A stretch of 14,066 bases of DNA from the UHGV virus genome UHGV-0237147, one strand, 5' to 3'. Shown here in pieces: positions 2,845 through 12,653 of the stretch. This DNA comes from a virus. Position numbers and translations under genes: made by a program. Every line of letters starts with the position of its first letter. Position 1 is the first letter of the stretch. The notes beneath the pieces were generated by a model. The model made no database searches, was not told where the DNA came from, and saw only the letters and a list, made by a program, of their open reading frames with translations.

Positions 2845-3459
2845 TCATACCAGTGCGGCCTTTGCTTTGGCGTAACGTTCACGGCGGTCTTTAATGCCGT
2901 TCTGCCCGCCGTTAATAATCTGCGTGACGCGTTCCACATCCCCCGAATAGAGGAGACAACCACGTAACGTGAAGTACCATGCCGCCGAACGGGCCGCGTG
3001 TCGCTCTTGCGTCAATAGTTCCGGAGTGCTCACAAGGTCAAGCTTCAGCGCTGTACCGCATTTGGTGTAGTTCTCACGACCAGTGATTTGCAGCAGGCCA
3101 CGACCGCGATATTTCCAGCCATCCCCCTGACTGTTATTCCCCATGCGGTCACCATAAACCAGATTGGCTATTTGTGGCTGGTGAGCGACCTGTTTACCAT
3201 CGACACGCCCCAGCATTTCGCACTGATACGGCGTCAGGCGCTTACCAAAGGTTTTCTTCAGCCCTTCAACCGAGTAGTTAAAATTCTCTACCAGCGAGGT
3301 AAAGCCATTGGATTCATGCCCAACTTGTGCAATGAACATGGCCTGATCATTAATCGCTGTAATTCCAAATTCTTTCATTGCCGCATCAATGTGCGGAAAC
3401 CAGCGCGCAGCTAACCCAGCGCTTACACCAGCCGCCTGTTGAAATTGTGATTGGTTCAT
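2845..3459 (-). CDS. Endolysin, glycoside hydrolase family 19 (chitinase-like lysozyme), 204 aa
   Basis: Translation contains the pattern FIAQVGHESNGF ... NLVYGDRMGNNSQGDGWKYRGRGLLQITGRENY ... AARSAAWYF ... VTQIINGGQNG typical of phage GH19 endolysins (recalled from Salmonella phage endolysins); ATG 3459 overlaps the upstream stop (TAATG) with RBS GAGG. Confidence 0.88.
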   Translation of the reverse strand: MNQSQFQQAAGVSAGLAARWFPHIDAAMKEFGITAINDQAMFIAQVGHESNGFTSLVENFNYSVEGLKKTFGKRLTPYQCEMLGRVDGKQVAHQPQIANLVYGDRMGNNSQGDGWKYRGRGLLQITGRENYTKCGTALKLDLVSTPELLTQERHAARSAAWYFTLRGCLLYSGDVERVTQIINGGQNGIKDRRERYAKAKAALV

Positions 3460-3740
3460 TAATGCCTCAGCGTATCAACGAGACGCGCCACGTTCCCACG
3501 AGCCCATAAGACGGCAGCGCAAATAAGAAGGTTTACGATGACCACCATCCAGTGTGACTCCTGGTAGAGGCCGAACAGGTAACGGAAAGGGACGCTGGCA
3601 TAAACCAGCACAAAGAAGTAAGCCAGCAATGATATAGCGGGGCGATGCCTTGCCCCTTCACGCTGGTAGAACATCAGGACAAGGACGATGACTGCACAAA
3701 TACCTGCATTCACCATCGCTGACGGATCACTTGTTACCAT
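3459..3740 (-). CDS. Holin-like / antiholin-like small membrane protein (93 aa from ATG 3740; ORF opens with GTG at 3758)
   Basis: Strong RBS GGAGGAGGGG upstream of ATG 3740; two to three predicted TM segments (AGICAVIVLVLMF, LLAYFFVLVYASV, MVVIVNLLICAAVLW); sits between the holin and the endolysin. Confidence 0.6.
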   Translation of the reverse strand: MVTSDPSAMVNAGICAVIVLVLMFYQREGARHRPAISLLAYFFVLVYASVPFRYLFGLYQESHWMVVIVNLLICAAVLWARGNVARLVDTLRH

Positions 3741-4122
3741 TGCTGGCCCCTCCTCCACGGAATCGCGAAAGAATACTGAACAGGCTTCCCAAATCCTGAC
3801 TGTTGAAAAATGTGAGCACTTTGATTGTCATCGCAGCCACTACAACAGCACCAAGTGCGTCTAATGGTCTATCACTGTACCCGGTAGCTTGTGACAGCTT
3901 TGAACCAACCAGGCCAGCAGCAAGAACGCCAACAATGAATGACGTCATGAAGTAAGCAATCAATCGTACTCGTGTGATATTTGCCGCTGTCGCTACATAA
4001 AATACTGCACCAGCGAATGCGCCAAATACCACGCCATAATCAATACCGGTTGCAAGACCAAATACGCTGGCTCCCATCAGGCCACCAGCCGCGACCGTAG
4101 TGCCAGAAACAGGATCGGACAT
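3727..4122 (-). CDS. Holin (multi-TM small membrane protein, 131 aa)
   Basis: ATG 4122 with RBS AGAGGGGG; Gly/Ala-rich TM helices throughout; first gene of the lysis cassette immediately upstream of the endolysin. Confidence 0.7.
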   Translation of the reverse strand: MSDPVSGTTVAAGGLMGASVFGLATGIDYGVVFGAFAGAVFYVATAANITRVRLIAYFMTSFIVGVLAAGLVGSKLSQATGYSDRPLDALGAVVVAAMTIKVLTFFNSQDLGSLFSILSRFRGGGASNGNK

Positions 4123-4165: not shown

Positions 4166-4192
4166 AATAAAAAAGGCCACCCGAAGGTGGCC
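4166..4192 (-). terminator. Rho-independent terminator between the AT-rich accessory module and the holin
   Basis: Perfect stem GGCCACC (4175-4181) / GGTGGCC (4186-4192) with loop CGAA; on the minus-strand RNA it is followed by a U-run (plus-strand AATAAAAAA 4166-4174). Confidence 0.7.
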
Positions 4193-4221
4193 TTTAATGT
4201 GATTCTTTTGCTGAATTATTT

Positions 4222-4800
4222 CTAAGCGGTAGCGACTACAACCTTACTCAGGAAACCATCATTACTAAGAAGAATGGCTTTCTCGAACTGTTTTGCTTTA
4301 AACCACTGCAAATATTTTGTTGCCGTTGAGTTGGCAACACTAAACACTTTTCCGATGAGCATAAAGCTCAACACAACAGGTGCAATGTAAAGCAGGAATG
4401 GTAGATTGTTTGCCACCAGAGCCTTATCCATTACTTTTACTGACTCAGACACAGCCTGAAGCAATTCTTCATTTTCACATGCAAACAGCACCTTGGCATG
4501 TTTGTTAACTCTTTCTTTGATTTCAGGGTTTCGAGCAAAGTTGATTTCCGCTCTGATCTTGTTACCAATTGTTAACAGGTGAAGTCTGTTGATCGTGTTG
4601 TTTAAGCCGTCGTGGATAAGAACAGCTGCTTTCATGTCCTTAGGGCTAAGATTGCCTGAAATAATTTCATTTCGAACTTTATCACGAATTTCGAAGAGCT
4701 CATTCCTAAAAGAAAGCCTCAATGATGGCTGCAAAATCCTTTCGTAAATGAAATGAAATGCAGCAAAAGCACATAGCGTGAAAAACAACGCAGTGATCAT
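4222..4800 (-). CDS. Membrane-anchored protein of unknown function (192 aa), second gene of the accessory (moron) module between Q and the lysis genes
   Basis: ATG 4800 with strong RBS GGAGGA at 6 nt spacing; N-terminal TM (ITALFFTLCAFAAFHFI), soluble central domain, second hydrophobic segment near the C-terminus (LPFLLYIAPVVLSFMLIGKVF); region appears AT-rich relative to flanking genes. Confidence 0.7.
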   Translation of the reverse strand: MITALFFTLCAFAAFHFIYERILQPSLRLSFRNELFEIRDKVRNEIISGNLSPKDMKAAVLIHDGLNNTINRLHLLTIGNKIRAEINFARNPEIKERVNKHAKVLFACENEELLQAVSESVKVMDKALVANNLPFLLYIAPVVLSFMLIGKVFSVANSTATKYLQWFKAKQFEKAILLSNDGFLSKVVVATA

Positions 4801-4825
4801 GGTGCATCCTCCAATTTAATTGTTG

Positions 4826-5206
4826 TTACTGGTCACTCGTCCCGAGTGGCTGTGACGTTTTTTGTTGCTGCAGAGTTGTCTTCTCTTTTCCTATGCGTTC
4901 AGCCTCGCTGCTGAAATCCTTACGCATAATCCTAGCATGACCTGCCCATGCGATAAGTGCAAGTACAAAGAATATCCAACCAAGCATGTTCCAGTTTAGA
5001 AGAGATACCAGGATATCGTGAATAACGTCTGGAATTTTCTCATTTGGTACACGAGTAAGCAAGATAACGAGCACTACAAAGACACATAAAGGCAACATCT
5101 GCCCTGTAGACATAGCTCTGTTGACAATATCCCTGGTTGCATGCGCCCAAGTGATCTTTGTGATACTGCTTGGCTTGCCGCCAGTTCTCTTATGATTGCC
5201 ACTCAT
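4826..5206 (-). CDS. Small two-TM membrane protein of unknown function (127 aa from ATG 5206; ORF could start at TTG 5251), first gene of the accessory module
   Basis: Two hydrophobic segments (MLPLCVFVVLVILL, MLGWIFFVLALIAWAG); no clear SD upstream of either start, so the start is uncertain; AT-rich context. Confidence 0.55.
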   Translation of the reverse strand: MSGNHKRTGGKPSSITKITWAHATRDIVNRAMSTGQMLPLCVFVVLVILLTRVPNEKIPDVIHDILVSLLNWNMLGWIFFVLALIAWAGHARIMRKDFSSEAERIGKEKTTLQQQKTSQPLGTSDQ

Positions 5207-5324
5207 ATTGTTAGTTATAGTCACGTTTTGAAGGGTAATTAATCTTATCAAAATGTGATGATTAAATTCAAAGATTTACATCAATAAAATCTAGTTGCGG
5301 CAATAGGTTATAATTTAAAAGGAA

Positions 5325-5346
5325 AAACCCGCACGATGGCGGGTTT
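5325..5346 (-). terminator. Hairpin terminator about 50 nt downstream of the Q-like gene (bidirectional; candidate tR-prime-like terminator)
   Basis: Stem AAACCCGC (5325-5332) / GCGGGTTT (5339-5346), loop ACGATG; T-run follows on the plus strand (CTTTTTGTT) and a U-rich tract follows on the minus-strand RNA as well. Confidence 0.6.
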
Positions 5347-5396
5347 CTTTTTGTTCTGTTGCTCAGTTCGCTTTAACGTCCCGAGCTTAACACAAT
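5347..5396 (-). promoter_or_regulatory. Candidate late-promoter / antiterminator-loading region between the Q-like gene and the hairpin terminator
   Basis: Positional inference only (in lambdoid phages the late promoter and qut site lie just downstream of Q, before tR-prime); no convincing -35/-10 hexamers identified by eye. Confidence 0.25.
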
Positions 5397-5989: not shown

Positions 5990-7039
5990 TTATGCCAGCA
6001 CGCCAATTGCCAGCGCTCGATCTATAACCCGAAAAACTAGGACCAGTTGGTCATCGTATTTCGCTTCAAATGCCACGGGATCAGCATGCAACTCGTTGTG
6101 ATGTGCTCTGCACAGCGGTATCACAAACAGGTCGTGTGCTTTTGTACCCATTCCACCCTGCCCGTGGCCAATCAGGTGGTGGGGGTCGTCTGCGGGTTTA
6201 TTGCAACAAACACAGGGTTGTGTTTTAACCCAGCGGGTGTACGTCTCATTTATCCAGCGGCGACGTTTTGGCCTGAGCATGAAAGACTCCGGAGACTCCG
6301 GATCGACGGTTAACGTCAGTATTGGCTTTTGGGTTTCCACATCCAGGCTGTCTGACCGCCGAGCTGGTAACGTTTCAATCGGCCTGACTTTTTCCTGCAT
6401 AATGCTGGTGGCCGGCGGCATAGGTACGATGTCACTTTCCCGGTAAACAGATAATAATGGTTCGTCTGGCAGCCGTAGTGCCCGCTGCGCCATTCCTTCG
6501 GTGACAGCATCAGCGACACCAGATTGAACCGCCCACCAGCAAAGTTCGGCTAAAGAGAGGGAGCGCTCTTTGTTGTAGCCAAGCCCAGCCAGTACGGTAT
6601 CAATAATCCATTCGGCAACATTGTTCAGCGCAAGCGCCTGCAATCTTTCCGTTGTCTGCCCGCGCAATTTGTTATCGCAGTGCCAGCACACCACCAACGC
6701 GCCAGGCGGATGCCATAGTGTCGTTAGCTCGGCATGATGGTAATCAGAAAAAGGGTACTGACACTTTTTAATGCGCTGACGAAGCCAGAACTCAAGCCCG
6801 GACATACCACCAGCAGCAGTAATGACCCGTTCATCGGTAAAGAAAGTGTGAAGGCTGGGATCCTCCAGTAGCGGTTGCTGTGCATCGGGGATCCGACCAG
6901 ACGGAAGCCGGGCCATGTTTTCTGGCTCCCGTTCAACCAGCACGCGACCTGATGCAAACAGGGGCATTAACTCCCGTCCTGGCTTGAACAGCACCACGCC
7001 AAGGCGTGGCACCATTTCAGGGGTAAGTAAGGCTCTCAA
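5990..7039 (-). CDS. DUF968-like prophage protein with a C-terminal HNH-type Cys/His motif (349 aa, TTG start; alternative ATG at 7015); resembles E. coli Qin prophage YdfU
   Basis: C-terminal CVCCNKPADDPHHLIGHGQGGMGTKAHDLFVIPLCRAHHNELH is an HNH-like metal-binding motif; size and position next to the Q-like gene match the YdfU family as I recall it; RBS AAGGGG upstream of TTG 7039. Confidence 0.6.
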   Translation of the reverse strand: MRALLTPEMVPRLGVVLFKPGRELMPLFASGRVLVEREPENMARLPSGRIPDAQQPLLEDPSLHTFFTDERVITAAGGMSGLEFWLRQRIKKCQYPFSDYHHAELTTLWHPPGALVVCWHCDNKLRGQTTERLQALALNNVAEWIIDTVLAGLGYNKERSLSLAELCWWAVQSGVADAVTEGMAQRALRLPDEPLLSVYRESDIVPMPPATSIMQEKVRPIETLPARRSDSLDVETQKPILTLTVDPESPESFMLRPKRRRWINETYTRWVKTQPCVCCNKPADDPHHLIGHGQGGMGTKAHDLFVIPLCRAHHNELHADPVAFEAKYDDQLVLVFRVIDRALAIGVLA

Positions 7040-7049
7040 TGCCCACCCC

Positions 7050-7571
7050 TTATACCGTCAGATCTTTAAATTTCTGTACGGCCTTCCCCATGTCCGCCAT
7101 AGCATCCACAAACTCATCAAACTTACGGCTTGCCATTCCATAAGCCTGGAGGATTTCAAGCTTCAGAGGATCGAGTTGCTTTTTTATTTCAGCGCGGTCA
7201 CCTGCCTTTTTTTCAGCTTCTTCAGCGGCACGAATGAGGGCTTCAGCCTGCTTGCGTAATTCTTCAGGGGTCACGGTTGGCTTATTCAAAGTGGCTTCCT
7301 TCAATGTCTTCGACGACGCAATAACCGGCGCCACGGATTTATGACCAAACTTAGGGTGATGCAGGGTTGTTGTCCTGCCGTCATCAGTAATGCAGAGCAG
7401 GCTGTTTTCGCGGATGATATCGATCAGGTTTTCTTTATCCTTCCGGCTCAACGAGCTATATGCTGATACTTTGTGCGTCAGATGGGTGAGCGTTGCCCCA
7501 TCAGGTTGTTTTTCAACAAACCGTTTAACCCTGGACAATACAGGCTGAAGGTGCGGAGGGGTCACTCTCAC
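7050..7571 (-). CDS. Hypothetical phage protein (173 aa, GTG start overlapping the upstream stop)
   Basis: Long ORF translationally coupled to the Ant gene (GTGA overlap); C-terminal half Lys/Glu/Ala-rich and predicted helical. No family recognised. Confidence 0.5.
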   Translation of the reverse strand: MRVTPPHLQPVLSRVKRFVEKQPDGATLTHLTHKVSAYSSLSRKDKENLIDIIRENSLLCITDDGRTTTLHHPKFGHKSVAPVIASSKTLKEATLNKPTVTPEELRKQAEALIRAAEEAEKKAGDRAEIKKQLDPLKLEILQAYGMASRKFDEFVDAMADMGKAVQKFKDLTV

Positions 7572-8389
7572 TGGAGACCCCCTGCTAAATCTTTATCGTG
7601 GGTAAAACTACCGTTCCAGGTGACCTTCATCGGAAGCTTCCCCTTCAGGTAGTTTTTGTACAGCCAGACAGCGCCTTCACGTAGCAGGACGGGCTGGTAG
7701 GTAGTAAAGCTCACCGCAGAGTTTGGCGATACTTTACTGCTTTTCTCGGTGAGGTATTTGTCGCGGGCATACGAACGAACACGCCACTGTGCACTGCGGC
7801 CTTCGGGATTGTCGTCGTACAGCCAGTTAGCAGAGACAAGCCAGGCACTGATCTTGGAGGTATTCACACCATTCAAACGCTTACAGAACTGTACAGGGGA
7901 AAGCCCGTCAGTGAAGAGACTCTCGAGATGCTCGATATATTCGGCCTGCTGGTGGGTAACTGTTTCCGCGCGCTGCCTGGCTTCAAATTCATCAGCCCAT
8001 GCTCTCGCAGCCTGTGCCGGATCAGAGAAATTTGGTAATGATGGTGTACCAACTCGCATTTTCGCTTGTTGTTCGCATGTGATGAAATAACGGCGAACCT
8101 GACGACCCTTCTCGTTTCTCTCCACCATCGCCAGTTCTTTACCCATATCAATGGTGATCAGGTAATCAACGGTTGGGCGTCCACCGAGGGGGTTCTCGCC
8201 AGAATTGGCGTAAACCACATAATCAGTATTTTCAGCAAAACCATACTGACTGATACGCCCTTTAATCCAGTTGGTGAAATCACGCCCAACGCCGAGAAAG
8301 GCATGTAACCTTTTAGCGCTGACCATCGGGGTTATGTGGTTGCCAATATTGCCCTGAGTGATCGGGATGATCTGATGTAGCTGACTCAT
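7568..8389 (-). CDS. Phage antirepressor (AntA/AntB N-terminal domain family), 273 aa
   Basis: N-terminal region SAKRLHAFLGVGRDFTNWIKGRISQYGFAENTDYVV ... DYLITIDMGKELAMVERNEKGRQVRRYFITCE matches the conserved antirepressor N-domain pattern; RBS GGGGAGG; ATGA overlap with the upstream gene. Confidence 0.75.
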   Translation of the reverse strand: MSQLHQIIPITQGNIGNHITPMVSAKRLHAFLGVGRDFTNWIKGRISQYGFAENTDYVVYANSGENPLGGRPTVDYLITIDMGKELAMVERNEKGRQVRRYFITCEQQAKMRVGTPSLPNFSDPAQAARAWADEFEARQRAETVTHQQAEYIEHLESLFTDGLSPVQFCKRLNGVNTSKISAWLVSANWLYDDNPEGRSAQWRVRSYARDKYLTEKSSKVSPNSAVSFTTYQPVLLREGAVWLYKNYLKGKLPMKVTWNGSFTHDKDLAGGLQ

Positions 8390-9242: not shown

Positions 9243-10558
9243 GCGGCCTCTCCCCGCATATTGCGAACAAGTTCAGAAGCGGCAGTAATGATTTCGCTGG
9301 TGGCCGTTCGTTCCAGCCAGAGTTGATTGATGTTGGCTTTCAGCTTGTTCTGCTGTGAATCATCCAGCATGTCAGCGCCATCCACCTGATCGAATACAAT
9401 TCCAACCTCCAGCGGCCAGATACGGGACTCGGGAAGCGGATCCGCTACTGGTTTAGCTTTCTCACGGATGTGCATGCGGATCTGGCGAATATTGGACCAA
9501 CTGGAAACATCCAGGCTTCCCATAGCTGCAATGAAATCAGTACTGTTCATGCCATATTCACCAGATGCTTCAAGGGCAACAGTCCGAATACGTTCCGACA
9601 TATCCAGGTGCGCAGCAGCGTCATCGAATTCAATCGACAACAGCCACTCATCCACACCGAACAAAATACTCTCACGAATAAGCAGCTTCGCTTTGTCGAT
9701 CGTTAATGGTGATACCTGAGTGAATTCCGGTGCTTCGACAGAATCCGCCGCCCAGGTATGCCCAAACTTCGATTCACTGAATGTGTATTCTTCTTTATCG
9801 CCGAACGCAGCTCTAACGCATGCCCACGCCTCTACACCGCTGACATCAAAAATATCTTTCTGGGTGAGTGGCAACTCTACTTCTGGCTTGTCAGCTACAG
9901 ATGGTGTGGCAGTTGCAGGTTGAGACTTGCTGACAGCAAATTGCGCCAAAGTCATAAACGCCTGCCCTTTTGCCTCCAGTTCTGTACGGTTGATATAGCT
10001 GAACCGCTCACCACGCCATGACTTATCGAATACAGCTATGGCACCGGCAAAAAACGCGCTGGTGGGCTTCTGTTTTTCGTCAGCAGGTACAAACCACACA
10101 GGCAGATCGAACCCAATGCGCCCGCGAATGAATACAATGTGATCGGCATCTTCCGGCCACCACGTTTCACTCGGCGCGGCTTTTATCAGGAATACATAGC
10201 GACCGCCCTTTTCGCGCTGGGCTGCTGCGTACTTCATGATGTGCGTCATACCAGTGATCGCCTGATTCTCGTGGTACTGCGAACGGCTATACGGTGGGTT
10301 GCCATAACCTGCACCACCTAGTTCTGCCAGACGTTCAGACCAATCCTGGGTCAGCGCGTTATCTTCGGCGGTGTACCATGCCGGGCATTTCGCGTTGTCG
10401 TCGTCAGCAAACAAGTCCAGAACTAATGGGCCAAATAACGCGTTGATCCCCCAGAAAAGCAGATCAGGTGTCCTCCACTGATCTCCAACTTCTTTCAATT
10501 CGTGAGCTGGTTTACTGCGCAGTTCAGCCAGCGCCTGGCAATACTTATTTGGCATCAT
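9239..10558 (-). CDS. Phage Dam-family DNA N6-adenine methyltransferase fused to an acidic C-terminal domain of about 240 aa of unknown function (439 aa total)
   Basis: N-terminal roughly 190 aa carry WRTPDLLFWGINALFGPLVLDLFADDDN and the NPPY catalytic motif (GNPPYSRS) typical of phage Dam methyltransferases; the remainder (after a Pro/Ala/Thr linker QPATATPSVADKPEVELPL) is acidic and unrecognised. ATGA overlap with the upstream replication-gene stop. Confidence 0.75.
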   Translation of the reverse strand: MMPNKYCQALAELRSKPAHELKEVGDQWRTPDLLFWGINALFGPLVLDLFADDDNAKCPAWYTAEDNALTQDWSERLAELGGAGYGNPPYSRSQYHENQAITGMTHIMKYAAAQREKGGRYVFLIKAAPSETWWPEDADHIVFIRGRIGFDLPVWFVPADEKQKPTSAFFAGAIAVFDKSWRGERFSYINRTELEAKGQAFMTLAQFAVSKSQPATATPSVADKPEVELPLTQKDIFDVSGVEAWACVRAAFGDKEEYTFSESKFGHTWAADSVEAPEFTQVSPLTIDKAKLLIRESILFGVDEWLLSIEFDDAAAHLDMSERIRTVALEASGEYGMNSTDFIAAMGSLDVSSWSNIRQIRMHIREKAKPVADPLPESRIWPLEVGIVFDQVDGADMLDDSQQNKLKANINQLWLERTATSEIITAASELVRNMRGEAA

Positions 10559-11421
10559 GAGCGGAACCCCGAATTTTCTGGCAGTGAATAGTCAACATTT
10601 TGGAAGTTTGCGCGGCTGGCTGAGTTAGTCGCCCATTTACCGTTAACGCGTTCAGGTCGCCCAGCGGCAGACCATTTGGTCGCGCTTTGCAGGTAACCGG
10701 GGAAGTTTTTTGGAATAAACAGAGTTGCCGGGCGGAGGTATTGAGCCTGCTCGCTATCACGCCAATCAGCGTTTTTGTAATCCACCACAAGGCACAGATC
10801 ATCAACAGTGAACTGTTCCCGCAGACGGGCGCGAATGTTCTCCAGCGACGTGCTGCATACCTGGTAGCGTGAACCAGTTGTCTGGTTCAGGTAAGACAAA
10901 ACCTGTCTGGCCTGATCAGTAATCACAACCTCAGGGTCGGGTTGCGCCGCAACCGGACAAGAGGGTTTTGAAGTTACTTGTGGATCTTGTTTTGATTTTA
11001 CTGACGGATCCCCGCCAGATTCTGACGGGTCAAAACCTCCGTTTTTGCCAGATTTCGACGGGTCAGTTTTTGAGGCGTCAAATTTTGATGCGTCAGATTT
11101 TGACGTGTCAGAATCTGACAGTTGAGAAAATGCGGCAGCCTGAAGTTTCGCCACATTCAGTCGGTACACGTTCGACGCATTACGGTTACCATTACGGCGC
11201 TGTGTACGCGTGAGCCAGCCATCTTTTTCAAGCTTTGCGATTGCCGTTCTGATAGTGCTCGGCCCAGCGCCAAGCTGGCGAGCAATAGTTTCAATAGACG
11301 GCCAGCACACGCCCTCATCGCTGCTGAAATCAGCAAGGCGAGCCATGATCGCGACACTAGACAACTTCATGCCCGACGCCGCGCAACCATCCCATACGTA
11401 GCCGGTTAATTTAGTGCTCAT
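10555..11421 (-). CDS. Replication initiation protein (lambda O-like: N-terminal HTH DNA-binding domain, low-complexity Ser/Lys/Asp linker, conserved phage C-terminal replication domain), 288 aa
   Basis: N-terminal winged-helix-like region (ETIARQLGAGPSTIRTAIAKLEKDGWL); C-terminal region (QARQVLSYLNQTTGSRYQ ... DYKNADWRDSEQAQYLRPATLF) resembles the conserved phage replication C-terminal domain (TIGR02220-like, from memory); iterons lie inside the gene as for lambda ori. Confidence 0.7.
   Translation of the reverse strand: MSTKLTGYVWDGCAASGMKLSSVAIMARLADFSSDEGVCWPSIETIARQLGAGPSTIRTAIAKLEKDGWLTRTQRRNGNRNASNVYRLNVAKLQAAAFSQLSDSDTSKSDASKFDASKTDPSKSGKNGGFDPSESGGDPSVKSKQDPQVTSKPSCPVAAQPDPEVVITDQARQVLSYLNQTTGSRYQVCSTSLENIRARLREQFTVDDLCLVVDYKNADWRDSEQAQYLRPATLFIPKNFPGYLQSATKWSAAGRPERVNGKWATNSASRANFQNVDYSLPENSGFRS
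11002..11111. repeat. Iteron array (candidate origin of replication): imperfect repeats with palindromic cores TGAyGnGTCA at 11023-11032, 11056-11065, 11071-11080, 11087-11096, 11101-11110, and a partial copy at 11002-11011
   Basis: Read directly from the sequence: tgacgggtca, cgacgggtca, tgaggcgtca, tgatgcgtca, tgacgtgtca, each flanked by a short T/A run; located inside the replication gene where they encode the SK[ST]D low-complexity linker. Confidence 0.7.
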
Positions 11422-12552: not shown

Positions 12553-12653
12553 AACGCCTCCTTAGCTAAGTTTGATTAGATATTAATAACCAATCTAACT
12601 TTGGTCAATAAAAACTAAGATTGCTTAGCCTTTTAATTTTTTATGGTGTTCAA
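12553..12653. promoter_or_regulatory. Divergent promoter/operator region between the Cro-like and CI-like genes
   Basis: Perfect palindrome CTTAGCTAAG (12561-12570); inverted repeat CTAAG-attg-CTTAG (12615-12628); inverted repeat TTAGAT (12575-12580) ... ATCTAA (12593-12598); AT-rich 101-bp spacer between divergent start codons. Confidence 0.6.

Follow-up and report, generated by a model that had tools for sequence, protein, structure and literature searches.

A TIR-less 2TM-1TM gene pair in the Q-to-holin slot of a lambdoid prophage as a candidate membrane defense cassette

Results

An exchanged cargo segment separates the Q-like gene from the holin

Judging from gene calls and Pfam and PHROGs matches, the window analyzed here, i.e. 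the whole 14,066-nucleotide (nt) stretch of UHGV virus genome UHGV-0237147, covers the early-right and the late-left part of a lambdoid prophage. Most of its genes are on the minus strand, and between the Q-like gene and the first holin gene lie two genes for small membrane proteins, termed 2TM and 1TM below (Table 1). An earlier sequence-only reading had pointed to an AT-rich insert of roughly 1 kb at this place, bracketed by hairpin terminators, and had proposed that it is an insulated accessory or defense module. The insert is indeed AT-rich, with a GC content of 39.8% over the exchanged segment against 51.5% and 51.1% in the flanks, and of 25.9% in the spacer at 5207-5322. Flanks lacking the insert were matched by megablast in 56 Escherichia coli genomes and 13 Klebsiella phages; absence from homologous phages, sharp breakpoints at ~4196 and ~5322, and a deviant GC content are thus the hallmarks of a moron that are seen here, and they support an accessory insert in the slot between Q and the lysis genes. 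The Q-like gene is part of the phage backbone and forms the upstream border of the slot, and the holin gene, the first of the lysis cassette, forms its downstream border. The E. coli prophages L017 and L018 (locus designations are ours) have the same Q gene and lysis cassette with another single gene in the slot, and because they hold other small genes there the slot can be regarded as a site of cargo exchange. The cargo genes of these two prophages, at L017 1612-1947 (phrog_13663, 110 amino acids (aa)) and L018 1613-1996 (phrog_18859, 126 aa), are of unknown function and had no match in a PADLOC search.

Both bracketing hairpins are present and fold strongly, none of 200 shuffled sequences folding as well in either case, but they apparently belong to the slot rather than to the cargo. 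Backbone homology to L017 and L018 runs through the upstream hairpin and stops right past it, and on the holin side it reaches the T-run and the first stem bases of the downstream hairpin, a similar hairpin being found at the latter position in E. coli relatives with other cargo. Because the homology extends into both hairpins in the presence of other cargo, they are features of the slot and not clearly parts of the insert. The upstream one is probably the Q-overridden (tR'-like) terminator of the late operon, a backbone element. The 50-nt stretch from the Q stop codon to this terminator is conserved among these prophages, and the late promoter pR' was not located in the window, the conserved 50 nt being a candidate only. 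The downstream terminator lies 27 nt past the 1TM stop codon. Its distance to the start codon of the holin, ~50 nt, is too short to accommodate a promoter, so that late transcription of the lysis genes would, from this geometry, have to cross the cargo. A Yersinia prophage (L007) has a second cargo gene in the slot, at 6860-7375 on the minus strand, which encodes a 171-aa protein of unknown function, has its own terminators, and lies between the pair and the holin.

The 2TM and 1TM proteins are members of known defense families

Both ORFs (open reading frames) were confirmed, together with the two transmembrane (TM) segments of the small protein and the hydrophobic segments near both ends of the 192-aa protein; in Kyte-Doolittle windows these lie at residues ~37-53 and ~74-90 of 2TM and 1-20 and 127-157 of 1TM. 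The program-made ORF list lengthens the 2TM gene to a TTG at 5251, but the ATG at 5206 is the preferred start because homologues are 122-126 aa long and because of the position of the promoter. The 1TM gene starts 25 nt past the 2TM stop codon, with a GGAGG Shine-Dalgarno sequence 7 nt ahead of its ATG. The sequence-only reading had recognized neither protein and had taken the system to be undescribed, and this did not stand: both are full-length members of the PADLOC families 2TM-TIR and 1TM-TIR (residues 7-126 of 2TM align with profile positions 5-124 of 124) and are homologous to proteins of a validated anti-phage locus in Escherichia phage P2_AC1. Pfam and NCBIfam gave nothing significant for either protein, sub-threshold hits to DUF6331, BPD_transp_1, and adenylate kinase being noise; in PHROGs both fall into families of unknown function, and profile searches of PDB sequences gave nothing below an E value of 0.09. 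No enzymatic or ligand-binding domain is recognizable in either protein, nor was a SLOG, Macro, SAVED, or CARF domain detected; a ligand-sensing domain fused to TM segments with a linked signal synthase, as in Thoeris II, CBASS, and Pycsar, was likewise not found.

The N terminus of 2TM is strongly basic (6 K/R versus 1 D/E) and its C terminus is charged, and the positive-inside rule predicts both termini to be cytoplasmic. A conserved motif, VTWAxAxRD...STGQxxPL, precedes TM1 in the alignment, and past TM2 follows a long conserved helix that ends in an invariant LGTSD. A lesser conservation of the periplasmic parts of 2TM was considered and given little weight, as it holds in the enterobacterial subfamily only and conservation is even across the superfamily; the AF2 model of 2TM had a pLDDT of 69, which we considered insufficient for searching by fold. 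In the 1TM protein, a TM helix at the N terminus leads into a helical bundle of ~110 aa, which is followed by another TM helix and a tail that varies. Its AF2 model (pLDDT 87.5) is all helical, with a long helix containing TM1 (residues 2-47) and a very long one containing TM2 (residues 110-177), between which lie three short helices. Residues conserved across the 1TM superfamily (H15, Y18, P24, R27, R31, F35, R38, D39, R42, N130, and P140) are found along the cytoplasmic end of TM1, on one side of the helix after it, and in the cytoplasmic half of TM2. The pair is under purifying selection, with a dN/dS of 0.02 for 2TM against a 93% identical relative (L140) and a dN of 0.107 for 1TM, for which dS is saturated.

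The pair occurs without the TIR gene of the P2_AC1 locus

The sole homologue of the pair in the phage database is found in P2_AC1, whose locus (L001) contains in order a 2TM (126 aa), a 1TM (185 aa), and a TIR (315 aa) gene. The window proteins are homologous over their full length to those of AC1, with 45% identity for 2TM (E 2e-36) and 42% for 1TM (E 1e-48), and the two loci share the gene order, the strand, a short gap between the genes, and the distance to the promoter upstream, and in each case a temperate phage carries the genes as cargo of a variable hotspot. On the other hand, the window has no TIR gene and its phage is lambdoid, from Citrobacter, with the cargo in the Q-holin slot, whereas AC1 is P2-like with the cargo in the gpA-gpQ slot, and activity is known for the three-gene clone alone. 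Protection against phages lambda, LF82_P8, and P2 was shown both for lysogens of AC1 and for the three genes cloned on a plasmid, pFD240, and a messenger produced by the TIR protein was suggested as a possible activator of the TM proteins (Rousset et al. 2022, PMC9122126). No later mechanistic work on the AC1 system was found in a literature search. PADLOC models the AC1-type system as 2TM-TIR, 1TM-TIR, and TIR-TM (PDLC03016), and in DefenseFinder it presumably goes by the name Rst_2TM_1TM_TIR.

Searches by tblastn with the AC1 TIR protein gave no match in the 14-kb window, nor in the 6-8 kb that flank the pair on each side in sister loci; in the window, the 1TM gene is followed by the terminator and then the holin. 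The trio of the pair and an AC1-type TIR gene was found only in copies 98-100% identical to AC1, and its 14 occurrences among 5,426 complete E. coli genomes all show at least 99.8% identity, which points to a single recent lineage. The only locus obtained from the scan of genome contigs, L016 (JAIJJM010000013.1), is a contig from a metagenome-assembled genome labeled Collinsella, in which the AC1 trio, 98-100% identical, is part of a P2-like phage; the Collinsella label is probably a binning error. P2-like phages with TM proteins 52-87% identical to those of AC1 carry the pair alone, with the portal gene directly after it, among them relatives at 85-87% protein identity, and no TIR remnants were seen past the pair in these relatives, the boundaries of the module being clean. 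Conversely, TIR genes occur by themselves: one in the P2 hotspot (L056) is 74% identical to the AC1-type TIR, another elsewhere (L057) is 60% identical, and in the lambdoid phage mEp390 the lone TIR gene mEp390_047 (L059 3501-4319; JQ182729.1 33400-34218) occupies the Q-holin slot itself. The latter protein matches PADLOC TIR-TM at 1.6e-57 and is 41% identical to the AC1 TIR; its gene is on the opposite strand and is flanked by annotated terminators, and the holin and endolysin of mEp390 are of the same types as in the window. The window cargo resembles the morons between Q and S of lambdoid phages, namely stx in Stx phages and mEp390_047, in its slot, lower GC content, terminators, and replaceability, and differs from them in being a two-gene membrane cassette that is also found in P2-like hotspots and chromosomes.

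The DNA of the AC1 locus is itself a mosaic. Pair-only relatives match it over L001 3346-4601, beginning at the promoter and extending 88 nt beyond the stop codon of 1TM, and then jump to the backbone, and a TIR-only relative matches from L001 4730 onward. Directly past the 1TM stop codon of AC1 lies a canonical terminator, AAAAAUCACCCC-UUAG-GGGGUGAUUUUUUU (L001 4512-4545, -17.8 kcal/mol, z -4.7). The standard terminator scan had missed it; it showed up as a palindromic self-match, and folding confirmed it. This hairpin is kept in TIR-less relatives (L026 ~8237-8270, -21.2 kcal/mol; L029 ~7879-7912, -20.6 kcal/mol), and a TTGACG, 17 nt, TTTAAT motif can be read just ahead of the AC1 TIR gene. 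With this mosaic structure, the terminator, and the motif ahead of the TIR gene, the AC1 "three-gene system" looks like two side-by-side transcription units.

These findings bear on the possibility that the pair is the effector arm of an incomplete system, which would need a TIR-made nucleotide signal and, with the TIR gene absent or located elsewhere, would be an inert or decaying remnant. Such dependence would agree with the DefenseFinder rule, which we take to demand all three genes for a call, and the TIR search was confined to the 14-kb window and the flanks of sister loci; the proposed possible activation of the TM proteins by TIR (PMC9122126) points the same way. We nevertheless regard it as distinctly unlikely that the pair is such a remnant, as pair-only loci are the overwhelming majority and under strong purifying selection, the trio represents one recent lineage with a terminator between the pair and the TIR gene in AC1, no SLOG, Macro, SAVED, or CARF domain was detected, and TIR genes are not enriched in the neighborhood of the pair (see below). 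Type II Thoeris and TIR/cyclic-nucleotide systems correspond to the original AC1 hypothesis, in which a TIR product would activate membrane effectors; the window pair differs from them in having neither a Macro, SLOG, or SAVED-type domain nor a linked TIR gene, and the comparison argues against TIR dependence. Taken as a whole, the sequence data favor a pair that functions without TIR.

The pair is an autonomous and mobile unit

The pair was followed across ~100 related loci, obtained by exact-protein look-ups, pattern scans of viral, genome, and metagenome collections, and from annotated records. Profile searches place 2TM directly upstream of 1TM in every phage locus, including relatives at ~30% identity, and the same holds for 62 of 74 metagenomic loci, which is 62 of the 68 that could be evaluated; six of the other 12 have no upstream sequence, and the remaining six comprise the 2TM pseudogene of L064, the in-frame fusion of L091, two fragments, and two apparent solo genes. 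The commonest arrangement is a 4-nt ATGA overlap between the two genes (26 of the 62 metagenomic loci). Pairing of the 2TM and 1TM genes is obligate, and the TIR-less pair is the rule, linkage to TIR being the exception.

Several unusual gene forms were encountered in the survey. L091 encodes an in-frame 2TM-1TM fusion ORF at 417-1208, in the 202-aa protein P0083 the N-terminal motif of 2TM is joined to the body of 1TM, and in L064 a truncated 2TM pseudogene (4674-4880) stands ahead of an intact 1TM gene. The fusions could reflect physical interaction of the two proteins or be assembly errors.

An exhaustive profile search recovered 917 clusters of the 1TM family at 50% identity with E values of at most 1e-3, and 692 with E values of at most 1e-10. 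No Pfam model covers this family, and 20 diverse 1TM relatives have no Pfam match in common. The loci span 29-67% GC and lie in a variety of settings. In Citrobacter, Yersinia, Serratia, L052, and L053 the pair occupies the Q-holin position of lambdoid prophages that have different Q and lysis types; in Brenneria L012, L025, and L033 it lies between the lysis genes and the terminase, in several P2-like loci in the gpA-gpQ anti-phage hotspot, in Endozoicomonas L037 in an integrative element adjoining AbiJ-like and RelB/ParE genes, and in many metagenomic loci in varied chromosomal settings. The sequence-only reading had asked if the two genes invariably occur together and invariably in the slot between Q and the lysis genes; the former holds, the latter does not. 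No third gene recurs, the 129 neighboring ORFs falling into 119 Pfam families of which none occurs in more than three loci, and the only TIR among these neighbors belongs to an AC1 copy. The pair is an autonomous, mobile, and selected two-gene unit.

Its scatter could also be that of a selfish membrane toxin-immunity (addiction) cassette, with one protein as the toxin and the other neutralizing it, maintained by post-segregational killing and conferring defense only incidentally. Both genes are small and often coupled translationally by the 4-nt overlap, they are dispersed over unrelated chromosomal contexts and insertion sequence elements with no conserved partner, and natural decay products occur, including the L064 pseudogene. 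However, the cassette is found repeatedly in phage defense and moron hotspots, both proteins have extensive conserved polar motifs, unlike the minimal hydrophobic peptide of typical membrane toxins, and neither matches a toxin-antitoxin family in Pfam, PADLOC, or NCBIfam, which makes an addiction cassette a rather unlikely explanation.

The same survey bears on a role in lysis timing, in which the two genes would act as an additional holin/antiholin-like pair and be expressed together with the late operon. The position immediately upstream of the holin, where the pair must be co-transcribed by Q-modified RNA polymerase, and the topology of 2TM, with both termini inside and a charged C terminus as in class II holins, are in line with such a role. 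Homology to ordinary lysis proteins, which the sequence-only reading had named as refuting its view, and constant linkage to lysis genes were both looked for, and neither was found: neither protein matches a holin, antiholin, spanin, or other lysis family in Pfam or PHROGs, two holins, an endolysin, and a spanin-like ORF are already encoded in the window apart from the pair, the same lysis cassette occurs without it in E. coli prophages, and in P2-like phages and chromosomal loci the pair lies far from lysis genes. The pair also has its own candidate promoter. A lysis-timing modulator is hence a most improbable function, and the pair is better regarded as accessory than as lysis machinery.

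A promoter candidate is conserved in position upstream of the pair

A candidate sigma-70 promoter can be read from the sequence 35 nt ahead of the 2TM start codon (Table 1). In 15 of 20 diverse loci there is a corresponding motif, TTGAC(T/G) or TTGAAT followed after 17-18 nt by TAnnnT, with 28-46 nt between its end and the start codon of 2TM. Several of these sites have a TG just ahead of the -10 element, and a standard scan calls the motif in Yersinia (L007), Serratia (L011), L053, and L029. Single sites are statistically weak, with shuffle fractions of 0.01-0.3, and the argument for a promoter rests on the conserved position because each site is weak alone. A layout of terminator, promoter, two genes, and terminator is seen in four lambdoid lineages. 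As to transcription signals of its own, the insert thus has strong terminators that apparently belong to the slot and a promoter that is indicated by its position in 15 of the 20 loci, the site in the window itself being weak. From this arrangement we infer that the pair is expressed constitutively in the lysogen, with additional late read-through.

Other features of the window

A 100% identical copy of the 1TM protein of the window is found on 494 contigs, with the source name "MULTISPECIES [Citrobacter]," and the gene order in the Citrobacter locus L003 is that of the window. The remaining backbone genes are listed in Table 1; a spanin-like ORF is also present.

Three further observations were made outside the slot. 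At 36-188, ~8 copies of GGGACAT/ATGTCCC are arranged as direct and inverted repeats, 69-90 and 98-119 among them forming a 22-nt inverted repeat; they resemble a cluster of protein-binding sites and may be cosB-type sites, a suggestion based on sister loci, where the small terminase gene (Nu1) lies a few hundred bases beyond. A 15-bp unit, CAGATTTTGACGCGT, is repeated in 4.3 copies at 11049-11112, within the O-like gene. Origin iterons of lambdoid phages usually sit inside the O-like replication gene. Finally, a 178-aa ORF at 299-835 on the plus strand, opposite to its neighbors, has a signal-peptide-like N terminus and no Pfam match, lies in a stretch of 41-43% GC, and may be a second moron-like cargo gene.

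Table 1. Features of the Q-holin slot and of the surrounding backbone in the window
Feature	Position	Strand	Details
Exchanged cargo segment (moron), 1127 bp	4196-5322	none	Alignment breakpoints versus L017 and L018; GC content
2TM gene, 126 aa	4826-5206	-	PADLOC PDLC02978 "2TM-TIR," 1.8e-50; phrog_33772
1TM gene, 192 aa	4222-4800	-	PADLOC PDLC02977 "1TM-TIR," 2.4e-63, full length; phrog_24550
Candidate sigma-70 promoter	5242-5271	-	-35 TTGAAT at 5271-5266; 18-nt spacer; TG at 5250-5249; -10 TAAGAT at 5247-5242
Upstream intrinsic terminator	5323-5348	-	~50 nt past Q stop; 10 stem pairs and T-run; -13.9 kcal/mol, z -3.7
Downstream intrinsic terminator	4172-4195	-	10 stem pairs (6 G-C) and T-run; -18.0 kcal/mol, z -4.7
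Q-like late antiterminator, 192 aa	5397-5975	-	Pfam DUF1133 2.6e-91, Phage_antitermQ 2.7e-08; PHROG 753 "anti-termination protein Q-like"
Holin, 131 aa	3727-4122	-	Pfam Phage_holin_8 2.2e-39; PHROG 198 holin
Second holin (Phage_holin_3_7)	3459-3758		
GH19 endolysin	2845-3459		
DUF968/HNH gene	5990-7039		
Dam-like methylase, RusA, KilA-N, and AntA genes			Between the O-like and DUF968/HNH genes, in this order
O-like replication gene	10555-11421	-	
cro- and cII-like genes			Between the cI-like and O-like genes
cI-like repressor	12621-13280	+	

Discussion

Our analyses suggest that the insert is, on balance, probably a self-contained prophage moron of the Q-holin slot whose two genes form an inner-membrane cassette defending the lysogen. 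The 2TM and 1TM proteins would assemble into one inner-membrane complex with its conserved surfaces facing the cytoplasm; this complex would be made in the lysogen from the promoter of the cassette, and again late by Q-dependent read-through, and would protect the lysogen against other phages. A defense role, which the sequence-only reading had put first, is the best-supported interpretation, in agreement with the genomic context of the pair, i.e. the P2 gpA-gpQ hotspot, the AbiJ-like and RelB/ParE genes next to it in Endozoicomonas, and a Q-holin slot that takes alternative cargo.

Protection would most likely proceed through an infection-triggered loss of membrane integrity, i.e. abortive infection following a RexAB-like logic, a block of phage entry being less likely. 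Such a block is the essence of superinfection exclusion, whereby an inner-membrane complex would prevent the incoming genome from entering and the host would not be killed. P22 SieA, T4 Imm, and HK97 gp15 block phage genome entry without host killing, and phages lambda, LF82_P8, and P2 enter by different routes. The pair resembles such exclusion factors in that both proteins are small, prophage-encoded, and located in the inner membrane, with an apparent lysogen-type promoter, and in that the AC1 locus protects against outside phages, including relatives of P2. Yet of the 33 residues of 2TM that are invariant in the enterobacterial subfamily, 31 map to segments predicted to be cytoplasmic or to the cytoplasmic ends of TM helices, and no invariant residue falls in the periplasmic tail of 1TM; hosts spanning 29-67% GC and the non-phage contexts fit receptor- or channel-specific entry blockers poorly; and the AC1 system targets lambda, LF82_P8, and P2, which are three different phages (PMC9122126). 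We therefore consider exclusion at entry unlikely and favor membrane failure because of the cytoplasmic conserved surfaces, the very different hosts, and the three different target phages of AC1. As for the proposed analogy with RexAB, lambda RexA/RexB is likewise a prophage-encoded two-gene system that is expressed in the lysogen and gives protection at the inner membrane. No sequence or fold similarity to it was found, and both window proteins are membrane-anchored, whereas RexA resides in the cytoplasm and RexB spans the membrane with four TM helices; the rex genes, moreover, lie in the immunity region and not in the late region.

Several observations weigh against a TIR-independent defense role of the pair. 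Rousset et al. assayed the three AC1 genes only together, and no dissection into single genes was found in their paper (PMC9122126). Among the metagenomic neighbors only ~6-8 of 129 match defense models and many are housekeeping genes, and with so few of the former and so many of the latter guilt by association is weak outside phages. The promoter candidate of the window is weak, with 8 of 12 hexamer matches plus the TG, and was missed by the standard scan; nor is there a clear Shine-Dalgarno sequence ahead of 2TM.

With these points taken into account, a broader proposition is a serious possibility, although somewhat short of probable: the 2TM-1TM pair alone may be a complete, ancient, and widespread membrane immunity system, and the cataloged trio may have arisen recently when, in one P2 lineage, this pair came to lie next to an independent TIR system consisting of a single gene. 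The protein families are already known, and what is new here is the TIR-less two-gene form together with the evidence that this is the common, autonomous state. The distribution of the pair suggests that the catalog definition of 2TM+1TM+TIR is too narrow, the window pair being a TIR-less variant that fails one defining feature. If the detection rule demands all three genes, as presumably it does in DefenseFinder, it describes a single, nearly clonal lineage, and if the pair is a system by itself, current rules miss nearly all of its real instances. A pair active alone would constitute a new two-protein membrane defense, the AC1 result would reflect two adjoining systems rather than one, and the lambdoid Q-to-holin slot, which also houses the lone TIR gene of mEp390, would join the known hotspots of defense cargo.

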